Assembly (NCBI GenBank): GCA_031364845.1
Contig: JANLWX010000065.1
Location: 1-64,000 of the forward strand
Origin: Candidatus Eiseniibacteriota bacterium
GTDB taxonomy: Bacteria > Eisenbacteria > RBG-16-71-46
Direction: 5' to 3'
Length of the DNA stretch: 64,000 nucleotides
Shown here: piece after piece, positions 5,786-43,697 of the stretch
How the letters are laid out: each line of letters opens with the position of its first letter
How positions within the stretch are numbered: the first letter of the stretch is position 1
Translations under genes and position numbers: made by a program
Notes under the pieces: generated by a model
Database searches by the model: none
What the model was told of the DNA's origin: nothing
The model's input: only the letters and a program-made list of their open reading frames with translations

Positions 5786-5799
5786 TTCAGATAGTTGAA
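5786..5799. promoter_or_regulatory. TTCA-N6-TGAA palindromic box (TTCAGATAGTTGAA)
   Basis: One of six intergenic copies; this copy lacks the 22-nt-spaced -10 and lies about -83 from the candidate leftward promoter. Confidence 0.5.
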
Positions 5800-7472: not shown

Positions 7473-7704
7473 GTACGTCCTCCCGGAGGGCTTCACCGTA
7501 CGGGCCGAAGTGTGTCGTGCGAGTTGCGAGTAGTTCACCGTCGCACCGGACTTCATTCGCGCTATGCCCGTGACGGGCTACCCAGCAGCGAGATCAACGC
7601 GGGGTCGCGGTTGTGTTCCACGGACTGATCCCAACTGCGCTGTCGTGGCGGTGCATGGAGCAATCAGCTCGCGATCACCGTTCCTGTGATGGCAACCCAA
7701 GACA

Positions 7705-10547: not shown

Positions 10548-11408
10548 ATGACTACGAGCAAGATAGTGTACTTCGTGACGTGCAGCCTCATGATGATCGG
10601 GCCGATCCCTGCCGCAGTTGCTGGACCGATGCATGCGAGAGCGGCCATTTGCGCGCTCAACGGCTGCACGGCCTCTGCCGACTGCGAACCTCACAGCGGT
10701 GCCGCGCACGCTACAAAAACAGCGAGTACGGCCGCAGGAACCATTTCTGTTACCGCCCACGAACAGCTCGGCAATAACTACGTGCGAATATCCAATCCCG
10801 CCGTCTACCTTGGTTGGTCCGCCAGCGGACATGCGCACCATCACGCTGTGGGATGCATACCCATAGCCCCGAATGGCATCAACGGCGCGGAGAACAGTGA
10901 GGAGAGCGCCGTCGTTAGCGACAATCTCTTCGCGAACCAGACGTATGGCCCCGGACCAAATTCAAACACCATCGCAGTCGGGTTCGATTCAAGCTCGTTT
11001 CTGCAGCTGAACTTGTCAAATCCGGCGGTGATGACGACAGGCTGGATCATGGAGATTAATGGAACGGAGAGCAGCGTTGTTCTCCACGGCCTGTCAGGAG
11101 CATCGAACGATTCTGTGTGGGCCGAAACCACGGGACTGTTTGCCGGGCGCCAGTACACGATCTCGTCGTCACCAGGGCACGTGCACACCCTTAGGTTTGT
11201 GTCACCGCTCCAATGGACAGTAGCGGGGGTTTGGGATACGGCCGACATCGGGCTGGAGGCTAGCGTGTGTGCAGGTGCCTCAATGTGCACGGCAGAGGCT
11301 GTCCCCGTGCCTGCCGCTCCTCTCGCCGGAATCCTTGGGATGGGCTCGTTCCTCGTCTTGATTGGGGTAACCCGCCTCCGGCGCGGATTTGCGGGGCGGG
11401 GCGATTAA
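10548..11408 (+). CDS. Secreted protein with VPxA-TM-basic C-terminal sorting signal
   Basis: N-terminal signal peptide; C-terminus 'VPVPAAPLAGILGMGSFLVLIGVTRLRR'. Confidence 0.75.
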   Translation: MTTSKIVYFVTCSLMMIGPIPAAVAGPMHARAAICALNGCTASADCEPHSGAAHATKTASTAAGTISVTAHEQLGNNYVRISNPAVYLGWSASGHAHHHAVGCIPIAPNGINGAENSEESAVVSDNLFANQTYGPGPNSNTIAVGFDSSSFLQLNLSNPAVMTTGWIMEINGTESSVVLHGLSGASNDSVWAETTGLFAGRQYTISSSPGHVHTLRFVSPLQWTVAGVWDTADIGLEASVCAGASMCTAEAVPVPAAPLAGILGMGSFLVLIGVTRLRRGFAGRGD

Positions 11409-12314: not shown

Positions 12315-15300
12315 CTAGGCTGTGCCGTTGGATCCCTTGGTGTCCACCAGCTGCATGCGATGCTTCTTCAAGCGATATCGCAGCGCTTGCTCGGTCAAAC
12401 CCAAGTCGCGAGCGGCCTGACTCTGATTTCCACCGCTGGCGCGAAGCGCATCCATCAGCACGCGTCTCTCATAGTCCTTAATGACTCTGGCTAGCCGACG
12501 ATTGCGCGCTGGCGCGCGTGTCGGGGTGCTGCTCACGTCACGAGGGGCTGGCTCCGGAGACAAGTAGCTCCCCGGCGTTAGCGCAAGCAGCCGCTCCAAA
12601 TAATTCTGAAGTTCCCGCACATTGCCGGGCCAGTCACTCTGGAGGAGGACGGCAAAAAAATCTGGTGAGAGCTTTGGAACGTCACGTTCTTGTTGCTTCG
12701 CAAATTGCGCCAAGAAGGCGCGGCTCAACTCTGGGATGTCCGCCTTCCGTTCCCGCAATGGAGGAATCGCGATCTCGATGACGCTCAGACGAAAGAACAG
12801 ATCCTCGCGAAACTTCCCGAGTTCAACCAGGCTGCGCAGGCTGCGATTCGTCGCGGCAACAATGCGCGCGTCGAAGGCGACCTCCTTCTGGCCCCCAACA
12901 GGCGTGACGGTGCGTTGTTGAATTGCCGCGAGCAGTGCGACCTGTTGACTCATGGGCATGTCACCAACTTCATCGAGGAACAGGGTGCCGCCGTCAGCTT
13001 GAACGAACTTGCCTGTCCGACCCCGGACCCCCGTCGCGACATTTGGCAGAATGCCAAAGAGTTCACTTTCCAAGAGGGTATCGGTGATTGCTCCGCAATT
13101 GACGGTGACGAAGGGACCGTGGGCGCGTTTGCCGCTACGGTGGAGTGCTTCGGCAATCAACTGCTTGCCGGTGCCGTTTTCCCCGGTGAGCAATACCGTG
13201 GTCTTGGTTCTGGCTGCGTGTTCAACCATGGTCAACACGCGACGCATGGGAGCGCTGGCGCCAATGACCCCGAACGCATGGCCACTCTTACCGACGACCG
13301 TACGCAACCCTACGTTCTCATCTCCGAGGCGAGTATTGGCTTGTTGGGCCTCGTCATGGCTGCGGCTTTTGTCGATTGCAACCGCGATGAGATGAACAAA
13401 GCCCTCGACCATGCTGCGTTGCGTTTCGGCAAAGGCATGAGTGCGCCGCGAGTCGTCCAAATAGACCATCCCGAGCAATCGACCATCGGTGAACAGCGGC
13501 ACGCAAAGGATGGATTGAATGTGCATTGCCTCAACACTGGCCGATGTCGTACGCGAGTCGCTGCCCGCGTCAAAGACCAGGAGGCTGTCGCCGCCCTCGG
13601 CGACCTGATGCACGACGCGTTTGCTGTATCCGAGCGCTGCCACGCGGGTCGAGGTCTCGATCTGCCCATATTCGGCCGCCGTAGTCATCTCGCCAGACAG
13701 AGGATCGACGAGCAGCAGGACTCCACGTTCCGCATCTAGTTGTTCGACGACGGCGCGCATGGCTCGCCGTAACAACTCGTCCAAGTCGGTGAGCGAGCTG
13801 AGGAGCCAGGAGGCACGTTCAATGAGCCCGAGCTCGCGCTCTGGTGCATCGTACGACTGGTTCGCGGAGGTCCATTTCACGGTCAACGTCAGTGCCGTAA
13901 CGCGACTGTGGTGATCGCCGCACCGTTCAAAAAGCGCAACCGCCTCCAGCAGGAGGCTCGTCAGTGGCGCGCGGACCGCTGCGGCAGCTGGGATCAACTG
14001 GGCAGCCTGCAAGATGGCCAGGGCGCGCTCATATGGTGCCGGCAATTCGGCGAATCGCCGCAGGGATTGTCCGAGGACGCGTAGACCCTCTGCGGAATTG
14101 CCGGCGACGAGTAGTCGTTCAGCCTCAAACACATCGCAATGTGCAGTCAGCAACGCGCTCGGGAATTTCGCCATCAACGTGCGGGCGCGTTCCACGTATT
14201 GATCAGTCGCCCTAGACTTTTCAAACCGGAGCGTGGCTCGAGCCGCGTTGATTGCGAGGAAGGCGACACCCAGACTCTCTGGCTGAGCGGTTTGGCGGAG
14301 ACCCGTCTCCCAGATATTGAGCGCTTCCTTCCAGCGGCCCTGCTGCGCGAGGATCCGACCGTACTCGATACGACACCATTGCGGCTCGGACCCTTGAGTA
14401 TCTCTCAGGGCGGCGTGAGCGCGCCGGACCGCCAGCAGCGCCAGGCCGGATCGGCCGGCCATGCGTTCTGCTTGGGCCAACGAGCGCCAGGCATAGGAAG
14501 AGAGGTCGGGCTGATGGCGTGCCGTGAGCCGAACGGCGCCGCGGGCTTGGCGACGTGCTAGCCGAGGATTGCCCAAGAGTCCGTCGACCTGCGCCATGTG
14601 GGACATCGCCACGGTGACTTCGATGAGACGACCGTCCTCGATGGCGAGTCTCAGTGCTTCAGCAAACGCTGCGCGCGCCGCCGGCCATTGGCCCAGGTCA
14701 ACCTTCACAGCCCCAAGCTTCATCAACTGTTCGCTCAGGGCCAGCCGATGATTACATTTTCGCGCGGCGGCTACGGCCAAGCCTGACTGCCGGTCCGCCC
14801 GAAGGATCTTGCCCCGTGCCCTGTATGCCAAGGCCTTCGTGCCCATGGCGCGAAGCACCCCGAGGGTGTTGTTGGCGCGGCGGTAGGCGCGGGCAGACTC
14901 GCTGATCCACTCCAAGGCGCCAGTCGCGTTGCCCCGGGCAAGCGCGAGGCGAACCAAGGTGTCCGAAGCCAATCCCATCCCGAGCCAATCCTTGGCCGTC
15001 TGAGAGTCGGCAAACGCGTCTCGTGCGTCACGCTCCGCCGATGGCTCTCCAAGCATCGCTCGCGCAATAGCCTGGTTGCCCCGCAGGCGATACCCCCAGG
15101 ACCCCGAGGCTTCCTGAAGTCCTTGATCGATGCGCTGCAGACACCCGCGTAAGTCTCCCGTGCGGAGATATGCCGTCGAGAGCCGAAAGAACAACTCGCC
15201 GCGCTGTAGAGGATCAAGTGCTCTCGTCAACGATCGTTCATAAAACGGAATGGCTGAAGCGTACTGGCAATCCTCGCGATACATCTCGCCAGCCCGATAG

Positions 15301-17330
15301 AACCATAGGGCTGCCTCAGAGAACCCATTCAGTTCGGCAAACTCACCTGCGGCCACCGCAAGGTGAGCGTCAGGCTGGTCGCCATGAGCTTGTTCCGCGG
15401 CCTGCAATGCCTGGTCCACATGCCCCAGAGCCCGCAGATGAACAAATCGCTCCCGGGCTGTTGTCGCCACCGCCGCGAGGGCCACGCGATGGAATCGACT
15501 CTGTATTTCGACGTCCGGCAAAGCCGCGGCCGGCGCTTGCAACCTTGATGAAGCCAGGAAGAATTTTTCGCCTTCCTCTGCGATCAGCGATTGGCGCTGG
15601 AGCTGAATGAGGTCATCGACTCTGGTCTTCGGCAGCAACGCACACAATTCCATCTTACTGAGCGGCCCAATGATGGCTAGGGCCGCCAGCGCTTCACGTT
15701 GCGCCAGAGGCAATCCGGACAACCGGTCCATCCGTGCCGCCATTGGGCCATTCAGGGCATTGTCGACCAAGATGTCGCCGCGGATGGCGACGCCATGGTC
15801 ATCTTCAACGACCGCCCCTTTGGAGACCAACCGGTGGAGCAGGTCGAGGGTGAACCCACAGTGGCCCTTGGCCTGTTGCCACAGGTACTTCACCAGCTGG
15901 GGTGGCGCTTCTGTTCCAAGTTGCATCGCGACCATTCGCTGCAGGTCATCTTCGCGGAGCGGACCGACGTCGATGGTTAAGGCAACACCACCAGCCTTGA
16001 GGACCTGCATTGCGTTATCCGTCTCCACCCCGTGCCCCAGAACCCACCACACCAGCTGTGAGCCTTCGGCTAGGATCACACGACGGAGCCAGGCAGCTGA
16101 CCAACGATCAAGCCGATCGGCGTCATCGATGACGATCAGGAGGTCGCCTACTCCTGAGGCGAATGCGCTCCGCGTCTGCTGAACCCAGTCGTCCAAGTCG
16201 TCGTTCGTCAATGGCTCCTTGCGATCGAACAGGCGGCTCAGGATTTGAGCGTTTGGCGTGGGCAACTGCGCGGCCAGCATTCTGAGTAGGGTGCGCGTCC
16301 CGCTTCCCCAAGCGGTTCCATGCGTCATGGCCAGATGGACCACGCGGCGTTCGCCAAGCGCGGCTCGGGCGGCAACTTCGTTCAAGAATGCTGAGCGCCC
16401 GGTTCCTGGTCTGCCTGCGACCAGCGCCACGCTGGGCACGGGTTTTGGCTGGATCAACCATTGGTCAAGCGAGCCTAGTTCGCGGTCACGTCCAATGACC
16501 CGAGACGCGCCTAGCCTGACCTCGAGTGAGCGAGCGGCATGCGGGGCTCGGCGCTCGATCTCGCGGCGGACGTCGCGAGCAGTGGCGGGGCGCTCGCTGG
16601 GCTTTTCGGCCAGCAGCCAGAGAAGTAGTTCGATGAGCTTCCACGGAACGTTGGCGATCTCTAGCGCTTGGACATCCGGTTTTGAACCGCGGTCGACAAA
16701 TGATCGCGATTCAACATCCTGCTCAAGAGGGGTCTTCCCGGTGATCAGCGCGTACAACGTAGCGCCCAAACCAAAGAGATCACTCGCGGTGTTGGCCGGC
16801 CCGCCGCCGACGATTTCAGGGGCTGCGAAGCCAAAGGTTCCTCGCCGGAAACTCTCAGGACCAACGCGGAGAGCTGAAAGTCCGAAATCCACCAGGCGCA
16901 CGTCGCGGTGGTGACCTCGAGCGCTGGACACCAAGATGTTGGAGGGTTTCAGGTCACCGTGGATTACCCCCGCGTCGTGGAGCGCTTCAAGACCCTCGAC
17001 CACCCGGCAGCCAACGGAAAGCGCGGAACTCCAATCGCCTCGGTCGACCGCTCGGTCGGATGGCACGCCCGGCACATATTCCAGCGCCAGATAGGGCGTT
17101 CCATCGGCCGAGACAGCGCAGTCTAAGACCTGGACGATGACCGGATGGCGAAGTTGAGCCAGGGCCTTGAATTCTCTGCGCAAGACGGTGAGAGGGTCGG
17201 CGATCTCGGGATTCAGGCGCTTGATGGCGCAGACCGACCCGGTAGCGAGGTCGCGCGCGAGAAAAACCTCGCCCATTCCACCATGGCCGAGTTTGCGCAA
17301 CAGAAGGTAGCGCGCTGCAAAGGTTTCCAT
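12315..17330 (-). CDS. Ser/Thr kinase-AAA-TPR-GAF-sigma54-interacting Fis-family transcriptional activator
   Basis: GHGGMG, AIK, HGDLKPSN, DFG, APE; P-loop GRPGTGRS; TPR-like helices; GAF 'SILCVPL...GMVYLD'; GENGTGK, ESELFG, GGTLFLDEVG, WPGNVRELQN; HTH 'GGNQSQAARDLG'. Confidence 0.93.
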   Translation of the reverse strand: METFAARYLLLRKLGHGGMGEVFLARDLATGSVCAIKRLNPEIADPLTVLRREFKALAQLRHPVIVQVLDCAVSADGTPYLALEYVPGVPSDRAVDRGDWSSALSVGCRVVEGLEALHDAGVIHGDLKPSNILVSSARGHHRDVRLVDFGLSALRVGPESFRRGTFGFAAPEIVGGGPANTASDLFGLGATLYALITGKTPLEQDVESRSFVDRGSKPDVQALEIANVPWKLIELLLWLLAEKPSERPATARDVRREIERRAPHAARSLEVRLGASRVIGRDRELGSLDQWLIQPKPVPSVALVAGRPGTGRSAFLNEVAARAALGERRVVHLAMTHGTAWGSGTRTLLRMLAAQLPTPNAQILSRLFDRKEPLTNDDLDDWVQQTRSAFASGVGDLLIVIDDADRLDRWSAAWLRRVILAEGSQLVWWVLGHGVETDNAMQVLKAGGVALTIDVGPLREDDLQRMVAMQLGTEAPPQLVKYLWQQAKGHCGFTLDLLHRLVSKGAVVEDDHGVAIRGDILVDNALNGPMAARMDRLSGLPLAQREALAALAIIGPLSKMELCALLPKTRVDDLIQLQRQSLIAEEGEKFFLASSRLQAPAAALPDVEIQSRFHRVALAAVATTARERFVHLRALGHVDQALQAAEQAHGDQPDAHLAVAAGEFAELNGFSEAALWFYRAGEMYREDCQYASAIPFYERSLTRALDPLQRGELFFRLSTAYLRTGDLRGCLQRIDQGLQEASGSWGYRLRGNQAIARAMLGEPSAERDARDAFADSQTAKDWLGMGLASDTLVRLALARGNATGALEWISESARAYRRANNTLGVLRAMGTKALAYRARGKILRADRQSGLAVAAARKCNHRLALSEQLMKLGAVKVDLGQWPAARAAFAEALRLAIEDGRLIEVTVAMSHMAQVDGLLGNPRLARRQARGAVRLTARHQPDLSSYAWRSLAQAERMAGRSGLALLAVRRAHAALRDTQGSEPQWCRIEYGRILAQQGRWKEALNIWETGLRQTAQPESLGVAFLAINAARATLRFEKSRATDQYVERARTLMAKFPSALLTAHCDVFEAERLLVAGNSAEGLRVLGQSLRRFAELPAPYERALAILQAAQLIPAAAAVRAPLTSLLLEAVALFERCGDHHSRVTALTLTVKWTSANQSYDAPERELGLIERASWLLSSLTDLDELLRRAMRAVVEQLDAERGVLLLVDPLSGEMTTAAEYGQIETSTRVAALGYSKRVVHQVAEGGDSLLVFDAGSDSRTTSASVEAMHIQSILCVPLFTDGRLLGMVYLDDSRRTHAFAETQRSMVEGFVHLIAVAIDKSRSHDEAQQANTRLGDENVGLRTVVGKSGHAFGVIGASAPMRRVLTMVEHAARTKTTVLLTGENGTGKQLIAEALHRSGKRAHGPFVTVNCGAITDTLLESELFGILPNVATGVRGRTGKFVQADGGTLFLDEVGDMPMSQQVALLAAIQQRTVTPVGGQKEVAFDARIVAATNRSLRSLVELGKFREDLFFRLSVIEIAIPPLRERKADIPELSRAFLAQFAKQQERDVPKLSPDFFAVLLQSDWPGNVRELQNYLERLLALTPGSYLSPEPAPRDVSSTPTRAPARNRRLARVIKDYERRVLMDALRASGGNQSQAARDLGLTEQALRYRLKKHRMQLVDTKGSNGTA

Positions 17331-17718: not shown

Positions 17719-18504
17719 GTGCCCGAGACCACGCGTGCCCAACTAGCGACGCGATTTGGACACTTCTCCTTACCTGTCACGGACCGGGTCTCTTCATTGG
17801 GGACGAGTCGCACCTACCCTGCTCGATACACGTTCTTCAGTCAGGGTGAAGGAGTCGAGGATGTTCTGTACCTCGAGCACGGCCTCGTCAAGCTTGTTCG
17901 GGGAAACCAGGACGGTCGGGAAGAGAGAATCATTGGGCTGCGCGCCGATGGGTGGGTCATCGGCGCCGCAGCCGCCATCCTCGACGAACCCTATGTCGCG
18001 ACGGCCGTCACGGTTGTGCCGAGCCGAATCGCTCGAGTGGCGGCCACGGAATTCAGGAGGCGGCTCCAGACAGATCACGAGCTTTCTGCGGCTGTGCACC
18101 GTATGCACGCTCGCGAAGTCTACAACGAACTCACGCAGGTAACGGAAAGCTCAATTTCCGCACGATCCCGTTTGGAACATCTCCTTCGCAACCTTGCCTC
18201 TCTGGAGCCGCCAAAGGGCTCGGGAGAGATCCACGTGCAGATGCCGCTTCGACAATGGGAGGTCGCCCAGATTGTCGGCGTCGCTCCACCCTATCTGTGT
18301 CAGCTGATGGCTGAGATGGAGGAGGATGGAATTCTAAGACGGGAGCGAGGCGCGGTGGTGCTCACCCTCCAGGGTCGGGACCACACAATTGCTCTGAGCA
18401 ATGCTCCGATCGCCAATGGTGGGCTGTCAGCATCAGCGATGGCATCGGGCGCGCCCAACCATCCGCTCGCGGCTGGCCGTTCTGCCGAGGCGCCTCCGAG
18501 ATAG
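17719..18504 (+). CDS. Crp/Fnr family transcriptional regulator
   Basis: cNMP-binding fold 'FFSQGE...LYLEHGLVKL...G.E.IIG...G.VIG...ATAVTV'; C-terminal HTH 'LRQWEVAQIVGVAPPYLCQLMAEMEEDGIL'. Confidence 0.9.
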   Translation: MPETTRAQLATRFGHFSLPVTDRVSSLGTSRTYPARYTFFSQGEGVEDVLYLEHGLVKLVRGNQDGREERIIGLRADGWVIGAAAAILDEPYVATAVTVVPSRIARVAATEFRRRLQTDHELSAAVHRMHAREVYNELTQVTESSISARSRLEHLLRNLASLEPPKGSGEIHVQMPLRQWEVAQIVGVAPPYLCQLMAEMEEDGILRRERGAVVLTLQGRDHTIALSNAPIANGGLSASAMASGAPNHPLAAGRSAEAPPR

Positions 18505-18931: not shown

Positions 18932-20362
18932 ATGCCGATCGATCTGAGTAAGCCCATTGCCTGGAAACTCGCTAATCACGATGAACAAAGAATGCTGCGA
19001 AGCCTCCAAGGCAACATACTCAAGGGTCATGGGCGATCCGCGACGTTGAACGTGTTTTTCGCCATCGACCCGGTCAAGAAGCACTCGGTGCGTGCTGCCC
19101 TTCGGACCATTGCCACCTTTCATGCTACTTCCGCATATCAACAGTTGCTCGAGACCGAACGATTCAAACAAACAGGCGAATCGGGAAGCCCGTTCGTTTC
19201 CGTCCTACTCTCCGCCTCGGGCTACGTCGCTCTGGACGTCCCAACAGAACAAATACCGGACGGTCAAAGCTTTAGGGAGGGCATGAAGGCGGCAGCCCTC
19301 GGAGACCCGCCTGTTGCTAGCTGGGACCAGCCTTTTCAAGGTCAGATCGACGGGCTGGTCCTGCTCGCGAGCGAGAACGATACGGCGCTTCGACTCAAGC
19401 GAGATGCGGTGGTGACGCTGTTGACTGAAGCTGGCGCGACCGTCGTCAAGGAGCAGCCTGGGCGAGCCCTTTTCAACAAGGCCAACGATGGCATTGAGCA
19501 CTTCGGTTACGTGGATGGTCGTAGTCAACCCCTTATGCTCGAAGAGGATGTTGAGCGCGAGGCCAGAGATGCTGGCATCGCACAGTGGGATCCGCAGTCG
19601 ACACTCGACGCTGCTCTCGTGCCTGAACCGGGCGCAAGCGACGACATTAGCTTCGGCAGCTATTTTATCTTTCGCAAGCTCGACCAGAATGTGCGCGAGT
19701 TCAAGCGCAGGGAGCTAGAGTTGGCGGTTGTGCTCGGGCTGACGGGCGAGGCACGTGAGCTGGCGGGCGCTTTGGTTGTTGGCCGTTTTGAAGACGGTAC
19801 GCCGGTGACCATGTCGAGCGAAGCTCGCGGCGTCAATCCTCCGAACGACTTCAACTACGACGCCGACGCGGGTACACGTTGCCCGTTCCACGCACACATC
19901 CGGAAGACAAATCCGCGAGGGAGCGGTGGCTTCGAGCCGCTCCCTAACGAACGCAAGCACCTGATGCCGCGTAGAGGAATTCCCTACGAGGATGTTGTTC
20001 GTGTGGTCCATCCGGTGGACGTTCCAGAGAGCGAGTCACTGGCCCAATTCGACGCTGAGGTCGCGCCCAAGCTGCCAACCGGGGATGTTGGTCTGCTGTT
20101 CATGGCCTACAACCGAGATCTATCGGTGCAATTCGAATTTACTCAGAAGACCTGGGCAAATAATGCAGGCTTTCCGCAGGCGCCAAATGCGCCGGGTCTC
20201 GATCCGGTAATCGGGCAGGGGCCCGTTAGCTTGCAGCCGTGGCCAATGCAGTGGGACGACATCGGCCTTGGGGCAACGCCATTCTCGTTTCAAGGATTAG
20301 TTACCATGCGCGGAGGCGAATATTTCTTTGCACCCAGTCTAAATTTTCTCCGAGCCCTATAG
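18932..20362 (+). CDS. Dye-decolorizing (DyP-type) heme peroxidase
   Basis: 'LQGNILKGHGR', 'EHFGYVDGRSQP' (GxxDG), 'CPFHAHIRKTNPR', 'RRGIPY', 'GLLFMAY', 'GGEYFFAPS'. Confidence 0.93.
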   Translation: MPIDLSKPIAWKLANHDEQRMLRSLQGNILKGHGRSATLNVFFAIDPVKKHSVRAALRTIATFHATSAYQQLLETERFKQTGESGSPFVSVLLSASGYVALDVPTEQIPDGQSFREGMKAAALGDPPVASWDQPFQGQIDGLVLLASENDTALRLKRDAVVTLLTEAGATVVKEQPGRALFNKANDGIEHFGYVDGRSQPLMLEEDVEREARDAGIAQWDPQSTLDAALVPEPGASDDISFGSYFIFRKLDQNVREFKRRELELAVVLGLTGEARELAGALVVGRFEDGTPVTMSSEARGVNPPNDFNYDADAGTRCPFHAHIRKTNPRGSGGFEPLPNERKHLMPRRGIPYEDVVRVVHPVDVPESESLAQFDAEVAPKLPTGDVGLLFMAYNRDLSVQFEFTQKTWANNAGFPQAPNAPGLDPVIGQGPVSLQPWPMQWDDIGLGATPFSFQGLVTMRGGEYFFAPSLNFLRAL

Positions 20363-30513: not shown

Positions 30514-30555
30514 TTCAGCTAGATGAAGGCGGCGGTCATCGCGACCTATTACCCT
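30514..30555 (+). promoter_or_regulatory. Candidate class II Crp/Fnr-type promoter: box TTCAGCTAGATGAA (30514-30527) with -10 TACCCT
   Basis: Extended CTTCA-N6-TGAAG; 22 nt to the -10 at 30550-30555; upstream of the four-gene cluster. Confidence 0.65.
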
Positions 30556-30600
30556 GCGTGCTCTTAGTTGCCGTGAGCGCTTTCAAAAGGGGAGGTCATG

Positions 30601-30834
30601 ATGGACCGAGAGAAGACCGCTTCCGATGCTGTTGCCGGCGCAACCTCACGAATCACCGTCGACGAATTTGCCGAATCCACGTTCGCTGCCATCACCAAGG
30701 CGATCGACCGTCGTCCGACACGACCCGGTGGCATTCGCGGGCCGATTATCTTCGGGATTATCTACTTCCCTGACGGTCTCCCTGGTGATTTTGGCGGAAA
30801 TCTCCCCGGAAGCGGTGGGCAGCCGGGTCGTTGA
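30601..30834 (+). CDS. Small hypothetical protein (helical N-terminus, GPIIFGIIYFP, Gly/Pro tail); possible precursor peptide
   Basis: GGAGG RBS; first gene of a tight cluster. Confidence 0.7.
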   Translation: MDREKTASDAVAGATSRITVDEFAESTFAAITKAIDRRPTRPGGIRGPIIFGIIYFPDGLPGDFGGNLPGSGGQPGR

Positions 30835-30836
30835 AC

Positions 30837-31286
30837 ATGGCCAACCCGGACATACCCCTCTGCCCGAGTGCGGCACCGGAATCGCCAGAGAGCTCTGTCT
30901 TTGGGGTAGTAGGCGGCTCTCGGGAACAACCACGCGTCGGCTATCTCACCCGACTCGTACCGCTGACAACGGAACTAGTCCAGAGAGTGGCCCCGCTTCA
31001 TCCAGGCGAAGTATTCCGAATTGCGGGTCAATGTGCCGGCAGGGGCTGTCGGCACTTTGACGGTCATCGGTGTCAGTTGGCGGTGCGGACTGTGGCGATG
31101 CTTCCCACCATCACCGAGCAGTTACCTCCCTGTCCTATTCGAGCACGATGCCGATGGTGGCGACAGGAAGGAAAAGCCGCGTGTCTGCGGTGCCCACAAG
31201 TTGTTACGCAGAGTTATGCCTCAGAATCGTTGTTGGCGGAAGCGGCATTGCCGGATATAGAACCCCATTTCAAAACGGAGGACTGA
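30837..31286 (+). CDS. Cys-rich hypothetical protein, probably metal-binding
   Basis: 'LCPSA', 'FGVVGG...PRVGYL', 'C.GRGCRHFDGHRC', 'CPIRARCRWW.QEG.AACLRCP' (8 Cys). Confidence 0.8.
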   Translation: MANPDIPLCPSAAPESPESSVFGVVGGSREQPRVGYLTRLVPLTTELVQRVAPLHPGEVFRIAGQCAGRGCRHFDGHRCQLAVRTVAMLPTITEQLPPCPIRARCRWWRQEGKAACLRCPQVVTQSYASESLLAEAALPDIEPHFKTED

Positions 31287-31289
31287 AAC

Positions 31290-31673
31290 ATGCCGGACCC
31301 AATGATTGACCGCAAGAAAGTCAAGAAGGAAATGGACGCACTAATTGAAATGATTACGCATCCGGCATTCGTCGCCGCCATGAAGGAGATGAAGGAAACT
31401 CCGGTGGCTGCGCGCAGAAAACTGGCCAAGGACGTGCTGGCCGTAGATGCACTTAGGAACGCAGGCGTGACAATGCCTAGGGGCATGCGCGTTACGACCC
31501 GCTACTTCGAACCCGGAAAGACCGAGGCCATCCAAGTCTCCCCCGATGGAAGGCTGAGCACGATCAAACTGCCGAAGGAACTTGTCATCCGCGGAGGTGG
31601 GCTGGTCTCTTGGGGAGGATGCGCTTGTGGTGGCGGACTGAGCTTCTGCGGCGGAGCTGGCGGTTCGTCCTAG
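31290..31673 (+). CDS. NHLP-leader-like protein with Gly/Cys/Ser-rich C-terminal tail (candidate RiPP precursor)
   Basis: GGAGG RBS; 'HPAF...LRNAGVTMPRGMRV'; tail GGG-LVSWGGCACGGGLSFCGGAGGSS. Confidence 0.75.
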   Translation: MPDPMIDRKKVKKEMDALIEMITHPAFVAAMKEMKETPVAARRKLAKDVLAVDALRNAGVTMPRGMRVTTRYFEPGKTEAIQVSPDGRLSTIKLPKELVIRGGGLVSWGGCACGGGLSFCGGAGGSS

Positions 31674-31756
31674 GAAGAGCGCGTCCAGACAACAATTGGG
31701 GCCGGCCCAGTAGGGCCGGTCGATCCTCGATCGCGTGCAAAAGGGGACAACCTGAA

Positions 31757-32296
31757 ATGGAAAACGTGAAGTACGCAGGGCTCGATTTCGATCGCGCGGA
31801 GCTTTCGAAAGTCATGGAAGAGTACTACTCCGACATCCTCGAGTTCATCCTCCATCCTGCGTTCCAGCAAACCTTCGCTGAGATGATGAGCCTCCAGCCC
31901 AATCTGCGGCCCACTTTCGTGTCAGAGGTATGGCTCGAGCCCCAGGAGTTGGAGCGAAGAGGGCTTCGCGTACCAGACGGGGTCCTGATCCAAACCTCCG
32001 CTTTTGGTGACAGAAGGCCGACATTGTTTGTTGTTAAGAAATTCTTGCCGGAGAAGTACCACCGGGCTTGGGAAAATGTGAACTGGACATTCAACAATGA
32101 GTTCAAGGATGAGGACGTGCCGAACGATCCGGAGAGTTCTTGGCGGCTACCGTTGGCAGTTAGCGTTCAAAACGCTTTGATGTCTGGTGGATTCGATCTT
32201 CAGCAGGCACCTAAGGAGATGGCGATCTTTCAAGAATTGGATGGCCCCGAAATCGTACGATCGGAAAAGAGACCGGTGAACGAAAGTGTCGCCTAA
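31757..32296 (+). CDS. Hypothetical protein, paralogous N-terminal domain to 31290-31673
   Basis: Shared 'DR...IxHPAF...EM...R...L..xG.xxPxG...T..F'; unique 'GDRRPTLFVVKKFLP...WENVNWTF'. Confidence 0.75.
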   Translation: MENVKYAGLDFDRAELSKVMEEYYSDILEFILHPAFQQTFAEMMSLQPNLRPTFVSEVWLEPQELERRGLRVPDGVLIQTSAFGDRRPTLFVVKKFLPEKYHRAWENVNWTFNNEFKDEDVPNDPESSWRLPLAVSVQNALMSGGFDLQQAPKEMAIFQELDGPEIVRSEKRPVNESVA

Positions 32297-32804
32297 GCTT
32301 CTAATGGCCAATGGACAGATCGGCACAACATCACATCGCAATCGTGTATTGTTGTATGAGCTGGTTGCTAGGGTGGATCGCCAAACGTGAGTATTGGGTC
32401 GAACGGAGTGGCGCAACATTGGGTTCTCCTGGCGTCAGGCGATCGATCCACATCGAGGCAAACTCCACCGACTGCGATTGGAGCGCCGCCAAGATGGGGC
32501 TCAATGTGCTAGGACCGGACTTCACCTTTGCCGATGGAACGCGCTTGCGGCAGATGGACCTCGATCCACCGGTGAACGCGGACTTCATCGTCGCCTTCAC
32601 GCCCACGGCCGAAGGGGAGGAGTCCATCGTGATTACATCGTATCGCGTTTGTGGGCCGCCGGGGACTCGCGGGGAACCGGGCCGGACGCGGTAAGGGGTC
32701 GGCGCGCCGGCAAGCGGCGTCACGATGAATTCGCGGATGCCAGCGGTTTGGAAGCCGCGGGGTAGGTAAGGAAACCGTGCCCGCGCAGCGCGAGTCGTCC
32801 TCGA

Positions 32805-36127: not shown

Positions 36128-37573
36128 ATGACCCGCAGGAGAATGTCAATGCAGATCCCCATCCCTAGCCGCCGCACCCAATTCTTCGTCACCCCGCAAC
36201 GGCGGCAATATGTTGACCTCATCGAGGCCGCCCGTGCCGCCGCGCATCAGGGACTACCCGCGTCCACCGCCACGACGCCCGACGACAACGAAACGACGAT
36301 CGAACGGCAGTTCACCCAGGAGCACATCGACACCGCCAATGCTGCGGCGAGCGCCCTTCACGATCATGCGGGCAACTTCGGCCGGCTGGCGGAACACTTC
36401 CCGACGCCCACTGACCTAACCGCAATCGTTGATACGGCGCAGACCCGTATCGAGCACGAACTGACCGCAGACGTCGACCTGCACCGGTGCCTGGATTCCT
36501 ACAACTTGGAGCGCAGCAGCTTGTTGGCGTTCAAGCGCGAATTCGGCCTGGTGCACGTGCCGAAGGATCAAGAGCCCCGCATCTGGCTCTTCGCGAAGCT
36601 CTTGGCGATCTTCTGTCTCGAAAGTGCCGGGAACACGACGTTCTTCGCGCAAGGCAACCAGCTCGGCATGCTCGGCGGCTTCTTCCAGGCCGCCATGATC
36701 TCCGCTGTGAACGTGGGAAGTGGATTCTGCGTCGGCAAGCTGGCCGTGCCCCACGTCAACAAACCATCCAACCGGCTGCGGGCCGCTGTCGCCCTGGCCG
36801 CGTGCGTGGCCGGAGCGATCGGATTCAATTTGGTGGCGGCGCATTATCGCGACGCTTTGGCGGCGTCGAGCACAACACTTCACGACTCGATCGGAGGTCT
36901 GCTGCGAGCGCCGCTTGGCCTGTCTTTCCACAGCTTTCTGATGCTGGCCGTCGGGCTGATCGCCTTCGGCGCGGCCGTGTGGAAGGGCGCCAGTGATGAC
37001 GACTGGTTTCCGCACTACGGTCGTCGTCATCGCCAATTCCTCTCCGCCCAAGACGCTTTGCATAGCATGTTCAAGACCACCAAAGGACGGCTGCTCAGCC
37101 ACGAGATGGGCGTCGGGCATGCCTGTGATGAGACCGTGGGCCGCGGCGCGGGGACTCTGGAAGCGATGAGCGAGGTGCTGAAGGGCGCTCAGCAGCTCGT
37201 CGGCACGTATGACGCCGAGCGAGCCCAGCTCGAAGGCAATCGCAACGTGCACTGGACCTGCTACCGCGAGGAAAACAAGGCGGTGCGATCCTCGCCGCCT
37301 CCAGCCTACTTCGACGTGTTCGAGCCATTCCCCAACTTGGTTGCTCGCCAACCGTTGGCAGAAATGCACGGTCGGATGGATCAGTTGCGGCGGGCTCTTG
37401 ATGAGCTACGGCTCCAGACGGGTGAGATCAAAGCTCACGGGCCCCGCCGTGTGGTTGCCCTCGAGCGTCGCTTTCGCGACTTCCTGAAGGGCCGTACCGC
37501 CCTGGACCTGGGCGTTGCCGAGCGCCATCCCGACCACCTCCGCGTCGGTGATGACGGCAGGGAGGTCGCGTGA
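36128..37573 (+). CDS. Membrane protein with flanking coiled-coil regions
   Basis: Four TM segments around 'ESAGNTTFFAQGNQLGMLGG', 'FNL..AHYRD'. Confidence 0.75.
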   Translation: MTRRRMSMQIPIPSRRTQFFVTPQRRQYVDLIEAARAAAHQGLPASTATTPDDNETTIERQFTQEHIDTANAAASALHDHAGNFGRLAEHFPTPTDLTAIVDTAQTRIEHELTADVDLHRCLDSYNLERSSLLAFKREFGLVHVPKDQEPRIWLFAKLLAIFCLESAGNTTFFAQGNQLGMLGGFFQAAMISAVNVGSGFCVGKLAVPHVNKPSNRLRAAVALAACVAGAIGFNLVAAHYRDALAASSTTLHDSIGGLLRAPLGLSFHSFLMLAVGLIAFGAAVWKGASDDDWFPHYGRRHRQFLSAQDALHSMFKTTKGRLLSHEMGVGHACDETVGRGAGTLEAMSEVLKGAQQLVGTYDAERAQLEGNRNVHWTCYREENKAVRSSPPPAYFDVFEPFPNLVARQPLAEMHGRMDQLRRALDELRLQTGEIKAHGPRRVVALERRFRDFLKGRTALDLGVAERHPDHLRVGDDGREVA

Positions 37574-38328
37574 CGGCGCAACGACGGACTCTCGCGGCCG
37601 GCATCTTGATCGGCCTTTCGCTGGTGTTTCTCTTGGGAATCGGAACCGCTGCCCTCTGCGTGGGCCGCGGCGAATTGGAACCGGGAACGCTCTGCCGGAA
37701 GGACCGGCCGAGAGCGGGCGGCACGATCGTACTGATCGACGTGACGGATCCGTACACGGCAAACCAAGCACAGGCACTGCGGGCTCGGCTCGGGCGGCTG
37801 GTCCAAACCGAACTGCGGACCAACGAATGGTTCGCCATTTGGGTACTGGGCGATTTCGAGGAGGGGACTCTCCGGAAACCGTTTTGCGCATGCAGTCCCG
37901 GTACGTCCTCGAACTGGCTGATTTCCAACCCGATTCAGACCAAGGATCGTTTCGACTCTCTGTTCGCGCATCCCTTGGCCCGACTGCTCGACACTTTGAG
38001 CGTCGTTCACCACGCCGAGCGGTCGCCGATCATGGAGGCCGTGCAGGAACTGACGGAGCAGAAGGAATTCTCACCTAACCTCGGAGTTCGGAGATTGATC
38101 ATCGTCTCCGACCTCCTCCAGAACACGGCCCGCCTGTCCCAGTACCGGGCACGTACACGGTCGCAACCCAGTCAGTCGCCGACCGGGGATCTGCGCGGCG
38201 TTCATGTTGAAGTGCTGTACATCGAACGTCGGCGCGACGCGGCCTACCAGGGAAGCGCTCACCGGCAATTCTGGCGGAAGTACCTCCATCGCTCCGGCGC
38301 GACCAGCGTCGACTTCGAGCGTCTGTGA
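37570..38328 (+). CDS. Membrane-anchored vWA-like protein
   Basis: 'IVLIDVTD', 'SPIMEAV', 'RRLIIVSDLLQN'; GTGA overlap. Confidence 0.7.
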   Translation: MTAQRRTLAAGILIGLSLVFLLGIGTAALCVGRGELEPGTLCRKDRPRAGGTIVLIDVTDPYTANQAQALRARLGRLVQTELRTNEWFAIWVLGDFEEGTLRKPFCACSPGTSSNWLISNPIQTKDRFDSLFAHPLARLLDTLSVVHHAERSPIMEAVQELTEQKEFSPNLGVRRLIIVSDLLQNTARLSQYRARTRSQPSQSPTGDLRGVHVEVLYIERRRDAAYQGSAHRQFWRKYLHRSGATSVDFERL

Positions 38329-38768
38329 AAGGCGCTCCCATGATCTCAACCATCAAGCTTCTGACGCTTCTCCTCGTGGGCCTGGCGTTGGTTCAATCGG
38401 TCACGGGTCCACTGCTCACTTTGGTTTTAGCTACAGCCGGCATTGCTTGGGTTTTCGGTGCGGATGTACGCGGAGGGCTCTGGCGAGGGGTCGCGTATCT
38501 GCGCACGCTCGTCTGGCAAGCCGCGCTCGTGCTCCTGCTGGCCTGGCTGGCCGTCGGCGGTCTGCTTGGGAGTACGCAGGGAATTCGCTCCCGGCATCCT
38601 CTCGCCATCTCTCTCGGCATGGCCCTGATCGGTTTCGTCCTGTGGCGCATGTGGCAACTCCTCCGTCGCCTCGGGCCACGGCGGAGTGTTCGTTTGGTCC
38701 GTGCGCCACTTCCGCCGTCGGCCAAATGGGTGGCGCCCAGATCTCCGAAGCGCAGGAGGACGCTGTGA
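38325..38768 (+). CDS. Hypothetical membrane protein
   Basis: Four hydrophobic segments; overlaps the upstream stop. Confidence 0.6.
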   Translation: MKGAPMISTIKLLTLLLVGLALVQSVTGPLLTLVLATAGIAWVFGADVRGGLWRGVAYLRTLVWQAALVLLLAWLAVGGLLGSTQGIRSRHPLAISLGMALIGFVLWRMWQLLRRLGPRRSVRLVRAPLPPSAKWVAPRSPKRRRTL

Positions 38769-38910
38769 GGCACGACAGTCGGGACGTGAGGCTTTCGATC
38801 AACCACTCTCGCCGCTTCTGGTTACGTCTCGAAACCCTGTCCACCAGCGACACCATGCTTGTGGGCAGGGTCGGTGGACAGCGTGCGACCCATGAATCTG
38901 GGAGCCGAAG

Positions 38911-40482
38911 ATGACTGCGATGCTCCTATCGATCGTGACTCTCGGCGGTGTCGGTTGGCTTGTGTTTGCGTGGCGCGCCAGACGTGACGCCGCAGTCGCC
39001 CGTCAGTCCGCGCGGCGGAGGAAGGCGCGCGAACAGGTCCTGCGCGAGTTCAACGACGTCTATGGGTACTTGGGAGACGTCGTTCATGGACAAGAGGCAC
39101 GTCGACTGATTCAAGCGGAGCCTGATCCTGCCCAGCTTCGTCACCAGCTCACGGAGCGCGTGGCCGCCATCGACGGTCCGCTGCTCGGACACCACCTCGC
39201 GGGCAGCGCCCGTCTCCCGATTCGCATGCCGATGCAGTTGCGGCTGCGTCACACCTTGGTCGTGGGGAAGACCGGCGTGGGCAAATCGACCATGCTCGTT
39301 AACGCCATCGTCGATGACATGGAACGCGGTTTGGGGCTAGCGGCCATTTCCCCGGAGCCGGAGTTCTTCGAAGAGGATCTCCTGCGGCTGGTGCCACCTC
39401 ACCGCCATGCGGATGTCATCTACATCAATCCGCGGGACACGACCGCTCCGGTGGTGCTCAACCCGCTGCAGTGTGACCCGGGCGAGGATCTCGACTTGAA
39501 GGTCGCCGAGACCATGGCGGTCATGGAGCGGCTCTGCGGGGAAGAAGGATCGACGGCCGCGCCGCGCACGCATGGGCTCCTTCGGCAAAGCCTTTATCTG
39601 TTGATGCGGATCCGCGGTTCGACCCTGCTCGACGTCGAGCCGCTGCTCGATCGTACCGATGATGGATTCCGGCGGTGGGCACTGGACCAGATCGATGATG
39701 AGCTGGCGCAACGTTTCTGGACCCGGACCTATCTGGCTTACGCGCGGGATAGCCACATCCCGCTGGTTAATCGCCTTTCGCGGTTCCTGCGACCGCGATT
39801 CACGCGTTCCTTGATGTGCACGTCGGGCTCCGGACTGAACATTCGCCGGTGCATGGACGAGGGGAAAATTATCTTGCTCAACGCCTCGGACGGCATCTTG
39901 GGTCAGGAGAACGCGGAGATTGTGGGACAGCTGTTCACCTCCAAGCTGCAGCTCGGATCGATGTCTCGGGCGGATACGCCCAAGGATCAACGCCGGCCGT
40001 TCATGGTGTACATCGATGAATTTCCATTCTTCTGCAATGTCGGCGCGACCAGCTACGAGCGGATGTTCAGTCGCAGTCGCAAGTACGGCCTGGGGCTGAC
40101 GCTGGCGGCACAGCATCTGGGGCAGATTCCCGAACCTCTCCTGCGCGATATTCTGGGCACGATTGGTTCAATCACGGCGTTCCAAGTCGGTTCAACCGAT
40201 GCCCGCCGGCTCGCGCGAGAATTCGTGGGTGAGCGCAACGGCGAAACGCTCGCAATCGAGCCGGAGACATTCTTGCGTCTCCCTGTCGGCCACGCGGTGT
40301 GCCGCATCGGCCGCCACGTCTTCCGCCTCCAGACGCCTTCCCCTCGAGCCGGTGGCTGTGACGCCACACGCAAGACTGTCGAAGCCCTATCGCAGCAGGT
40401 TCATGGCGCCCGCCCCCGAACGGTCGCGAGCGGCGATCGTCCAACTCCCACCGCCGCCTTTGATCCCGCGGAGGTGTTTTGA
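38911..40482 (+). CDS. VirD4/TraD-like (type IV coupling, HerA/FtsK superfamily) ATPase
   Basis: N-terminal TM; 'RHTLVVGKTGVGKST'; 'FMVYIDEF'; 'SRKYGLGLTLAAQHLGQ'; 'ILGTIGS..AFQVG'. Confidence 0.88.
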   Translation: MTAMLLSIVTLGGVGWLVFAWRARRDAAVARQSARRRKAREQVLREFNDVYGYLGDVVHGQEARRLIQAEPDPAQLRHQLTERVAAIDGPLLGHHLAGSARLPIRMPMQLRLRHTLVVGKTGVGKSTMLVNAIVDDMERGLGLAAISPEPEFFEEDLLRLVPPHRHADVIYINPRDTTAPVVLNPLQCDPGEDLDLKVAETMAVMERLCGEEGSTAAPRTHGLLRQSLYLLMRIRGSTLLDVEPLLDRTDDGFRRWALDQIDDELAQRFWTRTYLAYARDSHIPLVNRLSRFLRPRFTRSLMCTSGSGLNIRRCMDEGKIILLNASDGILGQENAEIVGQLFTSKLQLGSMSRADTPKDQRRPFMVYIDEFPFFCNVGATSYERMFSRSRKYGLGLTLAAQHLGQIPEPLLRDILGTIGSITAFQVGSTDARRLAREFVGERNGETLAIEPETFLRLPVGHAVCRIGRHVFRLQTPSPRAGGCDATRKTVEALSQQVHGARPRTVASGDRPTPTAAFDPAEVF

Positions 40483-41354
40483 GCCGCGCGGGATTGCAGA
40501 TAACTGAGCGGGACAGGACCTTGCTGACCACTCTTGAGCGGTATCGATTTCTGACGGCCGCCCAACTGCAGCGTCTCAGCTTTCCTTCCAAACACACCTG
40601 CTTGCGGCGCATTCTCAAGCTCGAGGCAGCCGGATTAGTCGCGCGTACCCGCGCGGACTCCATGCTACAGCCGCTGGTCACCCTCACCCGGCGCGGTGCC
40701 GCCCTCATCGGGAACGACGTCTCTGGTGCGAAACGCATCGTCTCTGACCTCTTCCTTCGGCATGCTGTGGAGTTGAACGACTTTCGCATCGCCCTTGAGC
40801 AAGCGTGTGCGCAGCGGTCGGACGTGCAACTTGGTGGGTTCGTGCCTGATCTCGCCTCGCATGCCTCCCGTGGGCGTCAACCCGAGCGGGTCCTCGGGAG
40901 CGGAGTCTTCGGTGGCGCCGTCGGATCACACACGCCAGATGCGGCGTTCGTTCTTCAGCGTGAAGGTCGCGCCGCTTTGTTCTTCCTAGAGATCGATCGC
41001 GGCACCGAAGTCATTGGCGATGTGAAGCGCGGAGTGGGCCGAGCGATTACCTACTACCTGCAGGCCTTCGCCGGAACCGGATTCCAAAGCCTCAGTAGTC
41101 TCTTTGATCTGCCGGAGCAGTTCCGCACCTTCCGCGTGCTGTTCGTCACTACGTCATCCGCCCGGATTAAAAATATTCGCACCCGGTGGGGGGCCGGCGC
41201 CGGAACGGCTGATCGGCGCTTCGTGTGGTTGGCGACTAAGGCCGTGTCCCACACCACCGACCTCTTCGCGGAGGAGTGGGTGACGCTCGAATCGAGCGAT
41301 GCGCACGCCTACACGATGATGGGCCGCCCGCGGGAGGCAACGCATGCTGCGTAG
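40479..41354 (+). CDS. Replication-relaxation (Replic_Relax) family protein
   Basis: wHTH 'ITERDRTLL..LERYRFLTAAQL', 'LRHAVELNDF', 'PDAAF...FFLEIDRGTE', 'FRVLFVT'. Confidence 0.85.
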   Translation: MSRAGLQITERDRTLLTTLERYRFLTAAQLQRLSFPSKHTCLRRILKLEAAGLVARTRADSMLQPLVTLTRRGAALIGNDVSGAKRIVSDLFLRHAVELNDFRIALEQACAQRSDVQLGGFVPDLASHASRGRQPERVLGSGVFGGAVGSHTPDAAFVLQREGRAALFFLEIDRGTEVIGDVKRGVGRAITYYLQAFAGTGFQSLSSLFDLPEQFRTFRVLFVTTSSARIKNIRTRWGAGAGTADRRFVWLATKAVSHTTDLFAEEWVTLESSDAHAYTMMGRPREATHAA

Positions 41355-42363: not shown

Positions 42364-42576
42364 ATGCCTGCGCCTTCGCTCGTGCCCGCAGTTGAGCGGC
42401 TGCTGTGTGTCCGCGAACTGGCGGATTTGCTGCAGCTCCATCCGAAGACGGTCGAGCGCATGGCCCGCGCCGGTCGGCTGCCTAGCCTTCGCGTGTGTGG
42501 CCGCCTAAGATTTCGACCGAGCGACATCGCTTCGTGGTTGGCGGCTCGGGAGGACCGCACATGCCACGACTCATGA
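42364..42576 (+). CDS. Excisionase-like helix-turn-helix protein
   Basis: 'LLCVRELADLLQLHPKTVERMARAGRLPSLRV.GRLRFRPSDIASWL'. Confidence 0.85.
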   Translation: MPAPSLVPAVERLLCVRELADLLQLHPKTVERMARAGRLPSLRVCGRLRFRPSDIASWLAAREDRTCHDS

Positions 42577-43619
42577 AAGGCCTTCGCCAGCGCGGCCGGA
42601 GCTATTACTTCCGGATTCGCGATGGAGAAGGAGAACAAAGCATTCCCCTCGGTCGGGACTTTGATCGCGCCATGACGCGCGCATTGGGGATCCGCCGCCG
42701 TCTGAAAGCCGGCCTACCGCCCACGGAAGAACGGTTGGCCACCTTCACCCTGCGAGACGCCGTGGAGCGTTGGTTGGAAGATCACGTGCGGCATGCCCGC
42801 CATGGAGCGTTTGCGGACAACACGCGTTCGCGCTGCGAACGGGTGCTGCTGCCGTTCATGGGGGGTGTCCAGATCGAGGATGTCACCGCCAGCAGGCTGT
42901 ATGCCTACCGCAACCACTTGGTTGTGCTGCGCAGCCGGCGCGGTGGCCCGCTATCGGCCGCGACAGTGCGGATGTTTCTCGGTGACGTGCGAGCGGTGCT
43001 GAATCACGCCCTGACACTGCAAGTGCTGGATCGCTCACCGATCCCGCGCAAGTGGCTGCCACGGCTACCGGAGCAAGCTCCTGATGTGCTGTCCCGAGAT
43101 GAACAGGCGGTGCTGCGAAATTTGCCTGATGACTTCGGGCGGACCTTGCGGCTGCTGCTCGGCACGGGCATCCGCTGGGGCGAACTCGACCGCGCTCAAG
43201 CAAGAGACATCCAGGCCGGCAAGCTCGTCATCAAGCGCAGCAAATCTGGGAAGATTCGCCGCGTGCCACTCCCGGCTGATGTGCTGCACGAGTGTCGCGG
43301 GCGCGTGGGCCAGCTATCGCCGTTTCGCGATGCCTGCCAATTCAACAAGAGCGTGCGGAAGCTGTCGGGGATTGTTCGGTTCCACTCGCACCTGTGTCGG
43401 CACACCTTCGCGACCGAATGGCGAGAGGCCGGGGGATCACTCGCAGCTCTCCAAGCGATCCTTGGTCACGGGAGCATCGCGGTGACAGAACGCTACGGCA
43501 CGATCGGCGATGACTTGGTGGATCGCGAGGCGCAGCGGGTCGCCGAGTACCGCGTTTCGAGGTCGGCCCCGTGCAAACGGGACAGAAAACGGGACAGGTC
43601 ACCGTTGTCCGTGAGCTAA
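42561..43619 (+). CDS. Tyrosine integrase
   Basis: GGAGG RBS; arm-binding N-terminus, 'TGIRWGEL', 'KSGK.R.VPL', 'HLCRHTFAT', 'LGHGSIAVTERY'. Confidence 0.92.
   Translation: MPRLMKGLRQRGRSYYFRIRDGEGEQSIPLGRDFDRAMTRALGIRRRLKAGLPPTEERLATFTLRDAVERWLEDHVRHARHGAFADNTRSRCERVLLPFMGGVQIEDVTASRLYAYRNHLVVLRSRRGGPLSAATVRMFLGDVRAVLNHALTLQVLDRSPIPRKWLPRLPEQAPDVLSRDEQAVLRNLPDDFGRTLRLLLGTGIRWGELDRAQARDIQAGKLVIKRSKSGKIRRVPLPADVLHECRGRVGQLSPFRDACQFNKSVRKLSGIVRFHSHLCRHTFATEWREAGGSLAALQAILGHGSIAVTERYGTIGDDLVDREAQRVAEYRVSRSAPCKRDRKRDRSPLSVS
43575..43597 (+). repeat. Tandem 11-bp direct repeat AAACGGGACAG (candidate integrase arm-type sites)
   Basis: Copies at 43575-43585 and 43587-43597, 25 nt from the tRNA 3' end. 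Confidence 0.5.
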
Positions 43620-43621
43620 GT

Positions 43622-43697
<76 letters not shown>

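Follow-up and report, generated by a model that had tools for sequence, protein, structure and literature searches.

The 64,000-nucleotide stretch of DNA from a Candidatus Eiseniibacteriota genome analysed here, hereafter the window, carries on its forward strand four closely spaced genes, A to D, that are the subject of this work. Gene A (30601..30834) encodes a candidate precursor peptide of 77 amino acids (78 if a second ATG, at 30598, is used) with a helix-like N-terminal part, a GPIIFGII motif and a Gly/Pro tail, and is preceded by a strong ribosome-binding site. Gene B (30837..31286) encodes a protein of 149 residues with eight invariant cysteines. Gene C (31290..31673) encodes a 127-residue protein in which a D-homologous part of four helices and one strand is joined by a variable linker to a conserved Cys/Gly tail, and gene D (31757..32296) encodes a cysteine-free protein of 179 residues, the paralogue and constant partner of C. 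The intergenic gaps A–B, B–C and C–D are 2, 3 and 83 nucleotides (nt), the C–D gap being the loosest, and the ribosome-binding site of C lies inside B. All four genes are single-copy in the genome, and a single contig assembled from run X1, which may be the source sample, covers the cluster without differences. A palindromic box of 14 bp, TTCAnCTAGnTGAA, is located ahead of A at 30514..30527. With at most one mismatch it occurs six times in the window versus 0.02 expected, and it is likely a regulator site common to the cargo genes of an integrative element. The four open reading frames (ORFs) with their contents and the regulon box upstream of A were both recognized in a preliminary description of this DNA, and both are present in the sequence.

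None of the proteins A to D has a Pfam or NCBIfam match near the cut-off, none of eight proteins matched the PADLOC models, and PHROGs likewise gave no match. Database relatives number 339 for B, 97 for C and 219 for D. To describe gene neighborhoods, we used the C alignment to fetch 37 C–D loci, which come from metagenomes and from named genomes belonging to several phyla (three pairs among them are near-duplicates); two viral loci and one plasmid locus bring the set to 40. B is absent from all 40 of these other C–D loci (in 30 of them the sequence upstream of C is 900 nt or longer) and likewise from 10 of 10 further C–D genomes, and neither C nor D occurs in any of 19 other B loci. All-against-all clustering of neighbors revealed no third recurrent gene around C–D, and Pfam scans of 180 selected ORFs, mostly C–D neighbors, returned unrelated genes, many of them from mobile elements. 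We are therefore highly confident that A–B and C–D are independent two-gene modules, which adjoin each other on this integrative element only. The proposed layout of two partner pairs holds, with D constantly beside C and small ORFs often preceding B, but the proposal of one four-gene system is unsupported because A/B and C/D co-occur in no other locus or genome examined.

A single pathway comprising all four genes, perhaps together with a co-regulated DyP-type peroxidase, would draw on the B–C gap of only 3 nt with the ribosome-binding site of C within B, on the single contig of run X1 that spans the cluster, and on the box common to the cluster and the peroxidase gene. The latter (18932..20362, +) is outside both modules, and one box copy (18808) lies 124 nt ahead of it. 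However, the lack of co-occurrence across the 40 C–D loci, 19 B loci and 10 genomes largely refutes such a pathway, and in a near relative, locus L016, whose C and D are 83% and 88% identical to ours, no B is found within 1.3 kb upstream. Furthermore, this DyP is unmatched in all 98 fetched loci by a single-sequence search, which would miss distant DyPs. The suggestion that it serves as an oxidative partner finds no support beyond this element, and we regard the single pathway as very improbable.

D follows C directly in 35 of the 37 loci, and the remaining two contigs stop no more than 40 nt past C; in L007 D is degenerate and in L005 it is frameshifted. As had been proposed, the partners are paralogues, the similarity covering roughly the first 80 residues of each (BLASTP E 3e-6; profile–profile probability 96%, E 4e-9). 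A profile search of 1.8 billion representatives yielded 170 clusters, of which 148 were examined. Natural fusions of a C-like protein with D account for 31 of these 148 family representatives (among which P0342 appears to be an artefact of a frameshift), and the Cys hairpin described below, where present, sits mid-chain in the fusions. Among shorter D-type proteins, 90 of 122 bear a TLFC motif, and each of those with known context (two viral contigs and one plasmid) has, upstream, a C-type gene whose tail contains two Cys. A search of plasmids with D itself gave no match. A rule that C and D always total three cysteines was considered and rejected, as some three-Cys C proteins have a TLFC-bearing D. 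The family is rare: D was found in none of 40 related genomes, and samples of 300 and 400 genomes contained no C–D family member besides the centre genomes.

The structural model of D (predicted local distance difference test, pLDDT, 89.6) comprises four helices, a three-stranded sheet and a C-terminal arm. The invariant residues, S81, F83, G84, D85, R86, R87, P88, T89, L90, K94, W105, N107, N109, T111, W129 and R130, form a polar and aromatic set that includes no His or Cys, so that no cofactor site is obvious in D itself. The model of C contains the helices and first strand of D, then an insert that varies and, at the end of the chain, a hairpin of two strands (109–116 and 119–126) with pLDDT below 50. 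Foldseek searches against the PDB gave no match at E 0.001 for either protein, and a viral structure library gave none for D. The best VIA-align Z scores, 4.8 for D (pilins) and 4.3 for C (Hsp33), are below those of common arrangements and decide neither for a new nor for a different fold. Sequence searches of the PDB returned nothing significant, a match to microcin B17 at E 1.3 most likely reflecting Gly composition.

The tail of C carries a tandem motif, C-x-small-x-G, loop, C-x-small-x-G, which extends from C111 to G124 (31620..31661, +) within the predicted β-hairpin. It is present in 97 of 97 relatives, in 40 of the 42 distinct C-type ORFs in the loci (both misses being frameshifted copies) and in 10 of 13 hand-picked Cys-bearing fusions; shuffled tails produce it in 9.5% of cases. 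Conservation within C is 0.77 for the tail, 0.61 for the domain and 0.37 for the linker, and seven residues follow the last Cys in 87 of the 97 relatives. The predicted cross-strand pairs are C111:G124, C113:G122 and G115:C120, which places each Cys opposite a Gly. At the middle position most members have C:G, L010, L031, L035 and L036 have G:C (two found by pattern and two read by eye, where the pattern had caught an earlier Cys), and the two-Cys class has S/T:S; C:C is never seen. The Cys spacing is CxC-x6-C, or C-x8-CxC in the swapped members. This clean compensatory swap points to either a new thiol or metal site or a minimal peptide-modifying system. Conservation of the Cys/Gly tail had been anticipated from the sequence of this one locus, as had a metal site as an alternative, and both are supported, the latter as a possibility. 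Twin-arginine-type signals were identified, by pattern match rather than with a predictor, on P0053, P0348, P0354, L032 and L035.

C had been likened to the precursors with nitrile-hydratase leader peptides (NHLPs) among the peptides that ribosomes make and that are then modified post-translationally (RiPPs), and its cysteines to the metal site of the nitrile hydratase (NHase) α subunit. NHLP or proteusin precursors (TIGR03793) are defined by similarity to NHase α, a Gly-Gly site at which the family conservation stops, a core that is hypervariable and a link to an ABC exporter (PMC2887384), and a folded NHLP leader has been described (PMC10858898, PMC12537861), with three helices and two strands (PMC10858898). 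C resembles them in its long, folded, helical N-terminal region, strand, Pro-containing linker and Gly/Cys/Ser-rich C-terminus, and in a short ‘L..GV.lP.g.rv’ motif. Unlike in NHLPs, the tail of C is conserved and the GG is variable (G109 in 68% and G110 in 83%), and C has a constant paralogous partner, which is not described for NHLPs in the portions of PMC2887384 and PMC10858898 available. Aligned with hhalign to a 12-sequence NHLP alignment, C scored 9.4% (over 17 columns) and D 2.0%, compared with 97.6% for the control, and both remained below 2% against NHase α. No family was matched in Pfam by 103 C members or in NCBIfam by 118 D members. Sub-threshold Atlas leads to the NHLP/NHase clan (0.79 and 0.77) leave room for a remote common ancestry. 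Both models place four helices ahead of the first strand, and no NHLP chain is among the structural matches listed.

The genome content points the same way. YcaO is absent from all six C–D genomes, our own included (the control search was positive in 5 of 14), no NHLP-type exporter scored over the cut-off, and the C–D neighborhood scans showed none of these either. There is no radical SAM protein on the contig of the window (C34), with 13 elsewhere in the genome, and none among the scanned C–D neighbors; SPASM domains occur elsewhere in four of five C–D genomes versus 8 of 14 controls. MNIO/DUF692 proteins are absent from our genome and present in one of the five other C–D genomes, far from the locus. 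A LanC search of the genome was blank, as were its control searches. The absence of classical maturases nearby, noted in the preliminary description, is thus borne out for YcaO, radical SAM proteins and the NHLP exporter. Because of the low profile score, the missing YcaO, the lack of an exporter over the cut-off and the absence of radical SAM proteins from the contig, C is not filed as NHLP. As for NHase α (PF02979), C shares with it a three-thiol Cys cluster, and the C+D fusions, viewed by eye, place the Cys motif between two related repeats, an arrangement reminiscent of NHase α. Unlike NHase α, C lacks the CxxCSC metal motif, and NHase α is not among the fold matches listed. No NHase β subunit appeared in the C–D neighborhood scans, and a genome search was blank, as were its controls. 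With the CxxCSC motif missing, a site of the NHase α type in C is not supported.

We favor a reading in which C and D form a heterodimer and the predicted hairpin of the C tail acts as a thiol or metal site, and we put its chances at about even; joined with the two-module split, the combined reading falls slightly short of that. C and D would be the split halves of a two-repeat protein, with the hairpin of C standing in for two strands that are present in D and missing from the domain of C itself. On the hairpin, a flat surface made up of Cys, Gly and other small residues would be turned toward the invariant polar residues S81, D85, R86/R87, T89, K94, N107, N109 and T111 of D. Two or three of its thiols would bind a soft metal or cycle their redox state, and the tail would remain attached and not be released. 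That the two proteins make up one folded unit is suggested by their constant adjacency, their paralogy, the fusions with an internal hairpin and the export signals. The Tat pathway exports folded proteins and complexes, and the twin-arginine-type signals fit export of a folded complex.

Several observations weigh against this heterodimer reading. The conservation of the tail is partly inflated because the tail was part of the query. The low pLDDT of the hairpin means that its register relies on the strand limits and the symmetry of the motif, and with C111 and C120 at opposite ends of the hairpin, a simple single site formed by three Cys is not expected. In 20 of the 31 fusions (a count in which P0352 was miscounted) the linker has fewer than two Cys, and the thiols are thus not needed in all branches. 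Column identity is 46% in D versus 31% in C, and such higher conservation is often seen in enzymes. Finally, some loci have several C genes per D (four in L005, and C–D–C with differing tails in L037/L038), an arrangement like that of RiPP clusters.

The last points lead to a less probable alternative, a minimal two-gene RiPP system in which C serves as the precursor, its leader being folded, and D as a maturase that modifies the hairpin; in detail, D, having evolved from the same leader fold, might, no more probably, bind that leader and cross-link, for example, a Cys sulfur to the facing Gly. The C-terminal tail of fixed length, the multiple C genes per D, the many invariant polar residues of D, and subfamilies that differ in a linker motif ahead of the constant D domain would all fit such a system. 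So would the Cys–Gly register with its compensatory swap, which recalls sactipeptides, hairpin RiPPs with S-to-Cα links. Unlike sactipeptides, C–D has no linked radical SAM/SPASM protein, its Cys are on both strands and D lacks an Fe–S motif. Precursor–enzyme fusions exist among RiPPs, namely borosins and burpitides, and like split or fused forms of these, C and D occur as two genes or one chain, although they have no methyltransferase or BURP domain and are paralogues of each other. Against modification by D stand the lack of a recognizable cofactor site for C–H activation, a core more conserved than the leader, the absence of any recurring protease or exporter among the neighbors, and the fusions, in which the hairpin is internal and often missing altogether. 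The hairpin geometry, the Cys-free fusions, the multiple C per D and the higher conservation of D together keep this alternative at its level, unlikely but to be taken seriously. By contrast, processing of C as an NHLP or thiazole/oxazole-modified microcin (TOMM) precursor by an enzyme of the YcaO, LanM or MNIO type whose gene lies elsewhere is the least plausible of all. The Gly/Cys/Ser-rich tail after GG, the short motif likeness and the NHLP cluster as best named Atlas match (at 0.77, a lead only) speak for it, but the core of C is not hypervariable, and the reading already failed on genome content, with YcaO in none and MNIO in one of the six C–D genomes and no exporter over the cut-off.

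Two further alternatives concern the pair as a whole and the hairpin alone. Two small genes with the partner first, a rare and patchy distribution, and frequent neighbors such as transposases, integrases, plasmid replicons and a phage terminase would suit a toxin–antitoxin or anti-phage module, with D kept inactive by its paralogue C. Since the PADLOC and PHROG searches were negative, several members have export signals and fusions are frequent, we consider this improbable. Still somewhat less probable is a purely structural hairpin, a flat packing face or a means of forming disulfide-linked oligomers with no metal-binding or catalytic role. A Gly opposite each Cys and the existence of Cys-free variants would agree with it, whereas the retention of the third Cys while it switches strands would not; moreover, most members, this C included, have no export signal, which makes stable disulfides unlikely in what would be a cytoplasmic location.

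Individual C–D loci offer some additional observations. In Zobellia (L005, 8073–11223), two of the four tandem C copies and the single D are frameshifted, through either decay or assembly error. On a phage contig, a two-Cys C-type and D-type pair (L086, 5612–6360) immediately precedes the terminase genes, a placement like that of a moron. In P0421, the only D seen fused to a known enzyme type, a D-type domain is joined to a C-terminal domain named PKHD-type hydroxylase by the source, a possible clue to oxidative chemistry. In Nocardia (L007, 11949–19886), a large ORF with SpvB/TcdB-type domains downstream of the degenerate D is an unrelated neighbor.

Turning to the other module, the eight invariant cysteines of B (C9, C66, C71, C79, C99, C105, C116 and C119) recur as a pattern in 119 of 120 listed relatives and in 15 of 17 divergent ones. 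With 57 members of the family as queries and E values up to 0.1, neither Pfam nor NCBIfam gave a match, and there was none in the PDB. Some sources label B relatives as ‘nitrogen fixation protein’, for which we found no basis. In five genome samples B was detected in 4 of 301, 1 of 150, 0 of 201, 2 of 221 (one weak) and 5 of 151 genomes, and viral contigs gave no match. On reading the 19 other B loci, a plausible small ORF on the same strand is found directly upstream of B in 15, and 8 of 10 tested upstream peptides belong to one family (leave-one-out, 25–65 bits). One of these loci, L039, has an annotated NHLP precursor with a double-glycine leader upstream of B, inside a RiPP cluster, and another, L042, has a double-glycine peptide before B, adjoining an NHLP exporter; both peptides have a P-I-G-hydrophobic core. 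In the six-frame translation of the genome (9.2 million residues), the candidate core of A, GPIIxGI[IV] (residues 47–54; 30739..30762, +), appears a single time, in A itself, and it recurs directly upstream of B in L090 and L092, although the motif was chosen after inspection of these two loci.

On these grounds it is about as probable as its opposite that A–B consists of a precursor peptide and a new eight-Cys metalloenzyme. B would bind two metal centres through its eight Cys, recognize the helix of A and modify a P-x-x-x-G-hydrophobic core. A, rather than C, appears to be the more RiPP-like precursor of the two. In having a short peptide directly before an eight-Cys protein, A–B resembles double-glycine RiPPs with Cys-rich auxiliaries (SPASM, PF13186; YkgJ/CxxCxxCC, PF03692), as do the GG leaders in L039 and L042. 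Unlike in those systems, A itself carries no GG leader and B has neither a radical SAM domain nor a family match. Some results also argue against this interpretation of A–B: 4 of the 19 B loci have no convincing upstream peptide, the best score of A against the other upstream peptides is 5.4 bits versus a mean best of 3.5 for shuffled sequences, which is not significant, and a profile built from ten such upstream peptides failed to find A (1.0 bit). The kinship of A to these peptides is the weaker part of the case, being suggested by position and the GPIIxGI[IV] motif. The main alternative to a precursor–enzyme pair is that A is the binding partner of B as a zinc-finger-like protein.

A kinship of B to YkgJ was also considered and is unsupported, with hhalign giving 0.1% against only two YkgJ sequences, a weak test. 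The B proteins of L039 (5641–6342, cyanobacterial), P0244 and P0319 have in common an N-terminal extension of ~95 residues that is possibly leader-binding. In Streptomyces, peptides before B with a signal-peptide-like start and a Cys end (L041, 5670–5918; L043, 5654–5887) lie beside nonribosomal peptide synthetase genes.

The cluster therefore holds two uncatalogued, independently mobile gene pairs whose functions are inferred, and what is new in them is the protein families and their architecture as opposed to any chemistry. By word matching in open-licence papers we found no paper on either A–B or C–D. C–D, a small module with members in several phyla, is found in none of the libraries searched and includes a confidently modelled D that has no clear structural match, and B represents a widespread eight-Cys family behind RiPP-like peptides and a candidate new class of maturases. 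We think it unlikely, though less so than the toxin–antitoxin and structural alternatives above, that both pairs at once are self-sufficient two-gene peptide-modifying systems with undescribed chemistry. If they were, D would be a new-fold enzyme derived from the leader of its own substrate that links hairpin Cys to the facing Gly without radical SAM chemistry, and B a stand-alone eight-Cys metalloenzyme acting on the P-x-x-x-G-hydrophobic core of A-type peptides, cores that would occur on NHLP and other double-glycine leaders as well. Each pair consists of just two short genes and is directly testable.

Both modules are carried by an integrative element whose right end is marked by a tyrosine integrase gene (42495–43619, +) and a tRNA-Lys gene (43622–43697, −), and which also bears a relaxase-like gene at 40479. 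The GC content is 0.596 to the left of the tRNA (the left 43.6 kb of the window) versus 0.652 to the right. A 45-bp end of the tRNA is repeated on contig C204 at 32504–32548, just before a stretch with two more boxes (35775 and 53152). Besides the copies ahead of A and the DyP gene, the boxes in the window start at 5786, 9054, 9906 and 9982, and the eight boxes are probably all on one tRNA-Lys-integrated element that is split over contigs C204 and C34. At the 37 other C–D loci, the box has a single match, with one mismatch, 2.2 kb from C. Candidate box binders on the element are a Crp-family gene (17719–18504) and a gene for a kinase–TPR–sigma54 activator (12315–17330). A search for sigma-70 promoters found none. 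Between C and D, at 31690–31725, a GC-rich inverted repeat with no T run, seen by eye, could set the ratio of C to D transcripts. A 127-residue ORF (32311–32694) begins 14 nt after D on the same strand; it has no family match and no match in other C–D loci and is a doubtful gene. The region 36128–41354 encodes membrane proteins, an ATPase that by eye resembles coupling proteins but has no Pfam match, and a Replic_Relax relaxase, and is likely the transfer module of the element; genes similar to it flank C–D in locus L033. Two further genes (7161–7556, −, and 10548–11408, +) encode secreted-looking proteins whose C-terminal segment is Pro-rich, hydrophobic and basic and resembles a sorting signal, and the first of these also has a Cys-rich domain.

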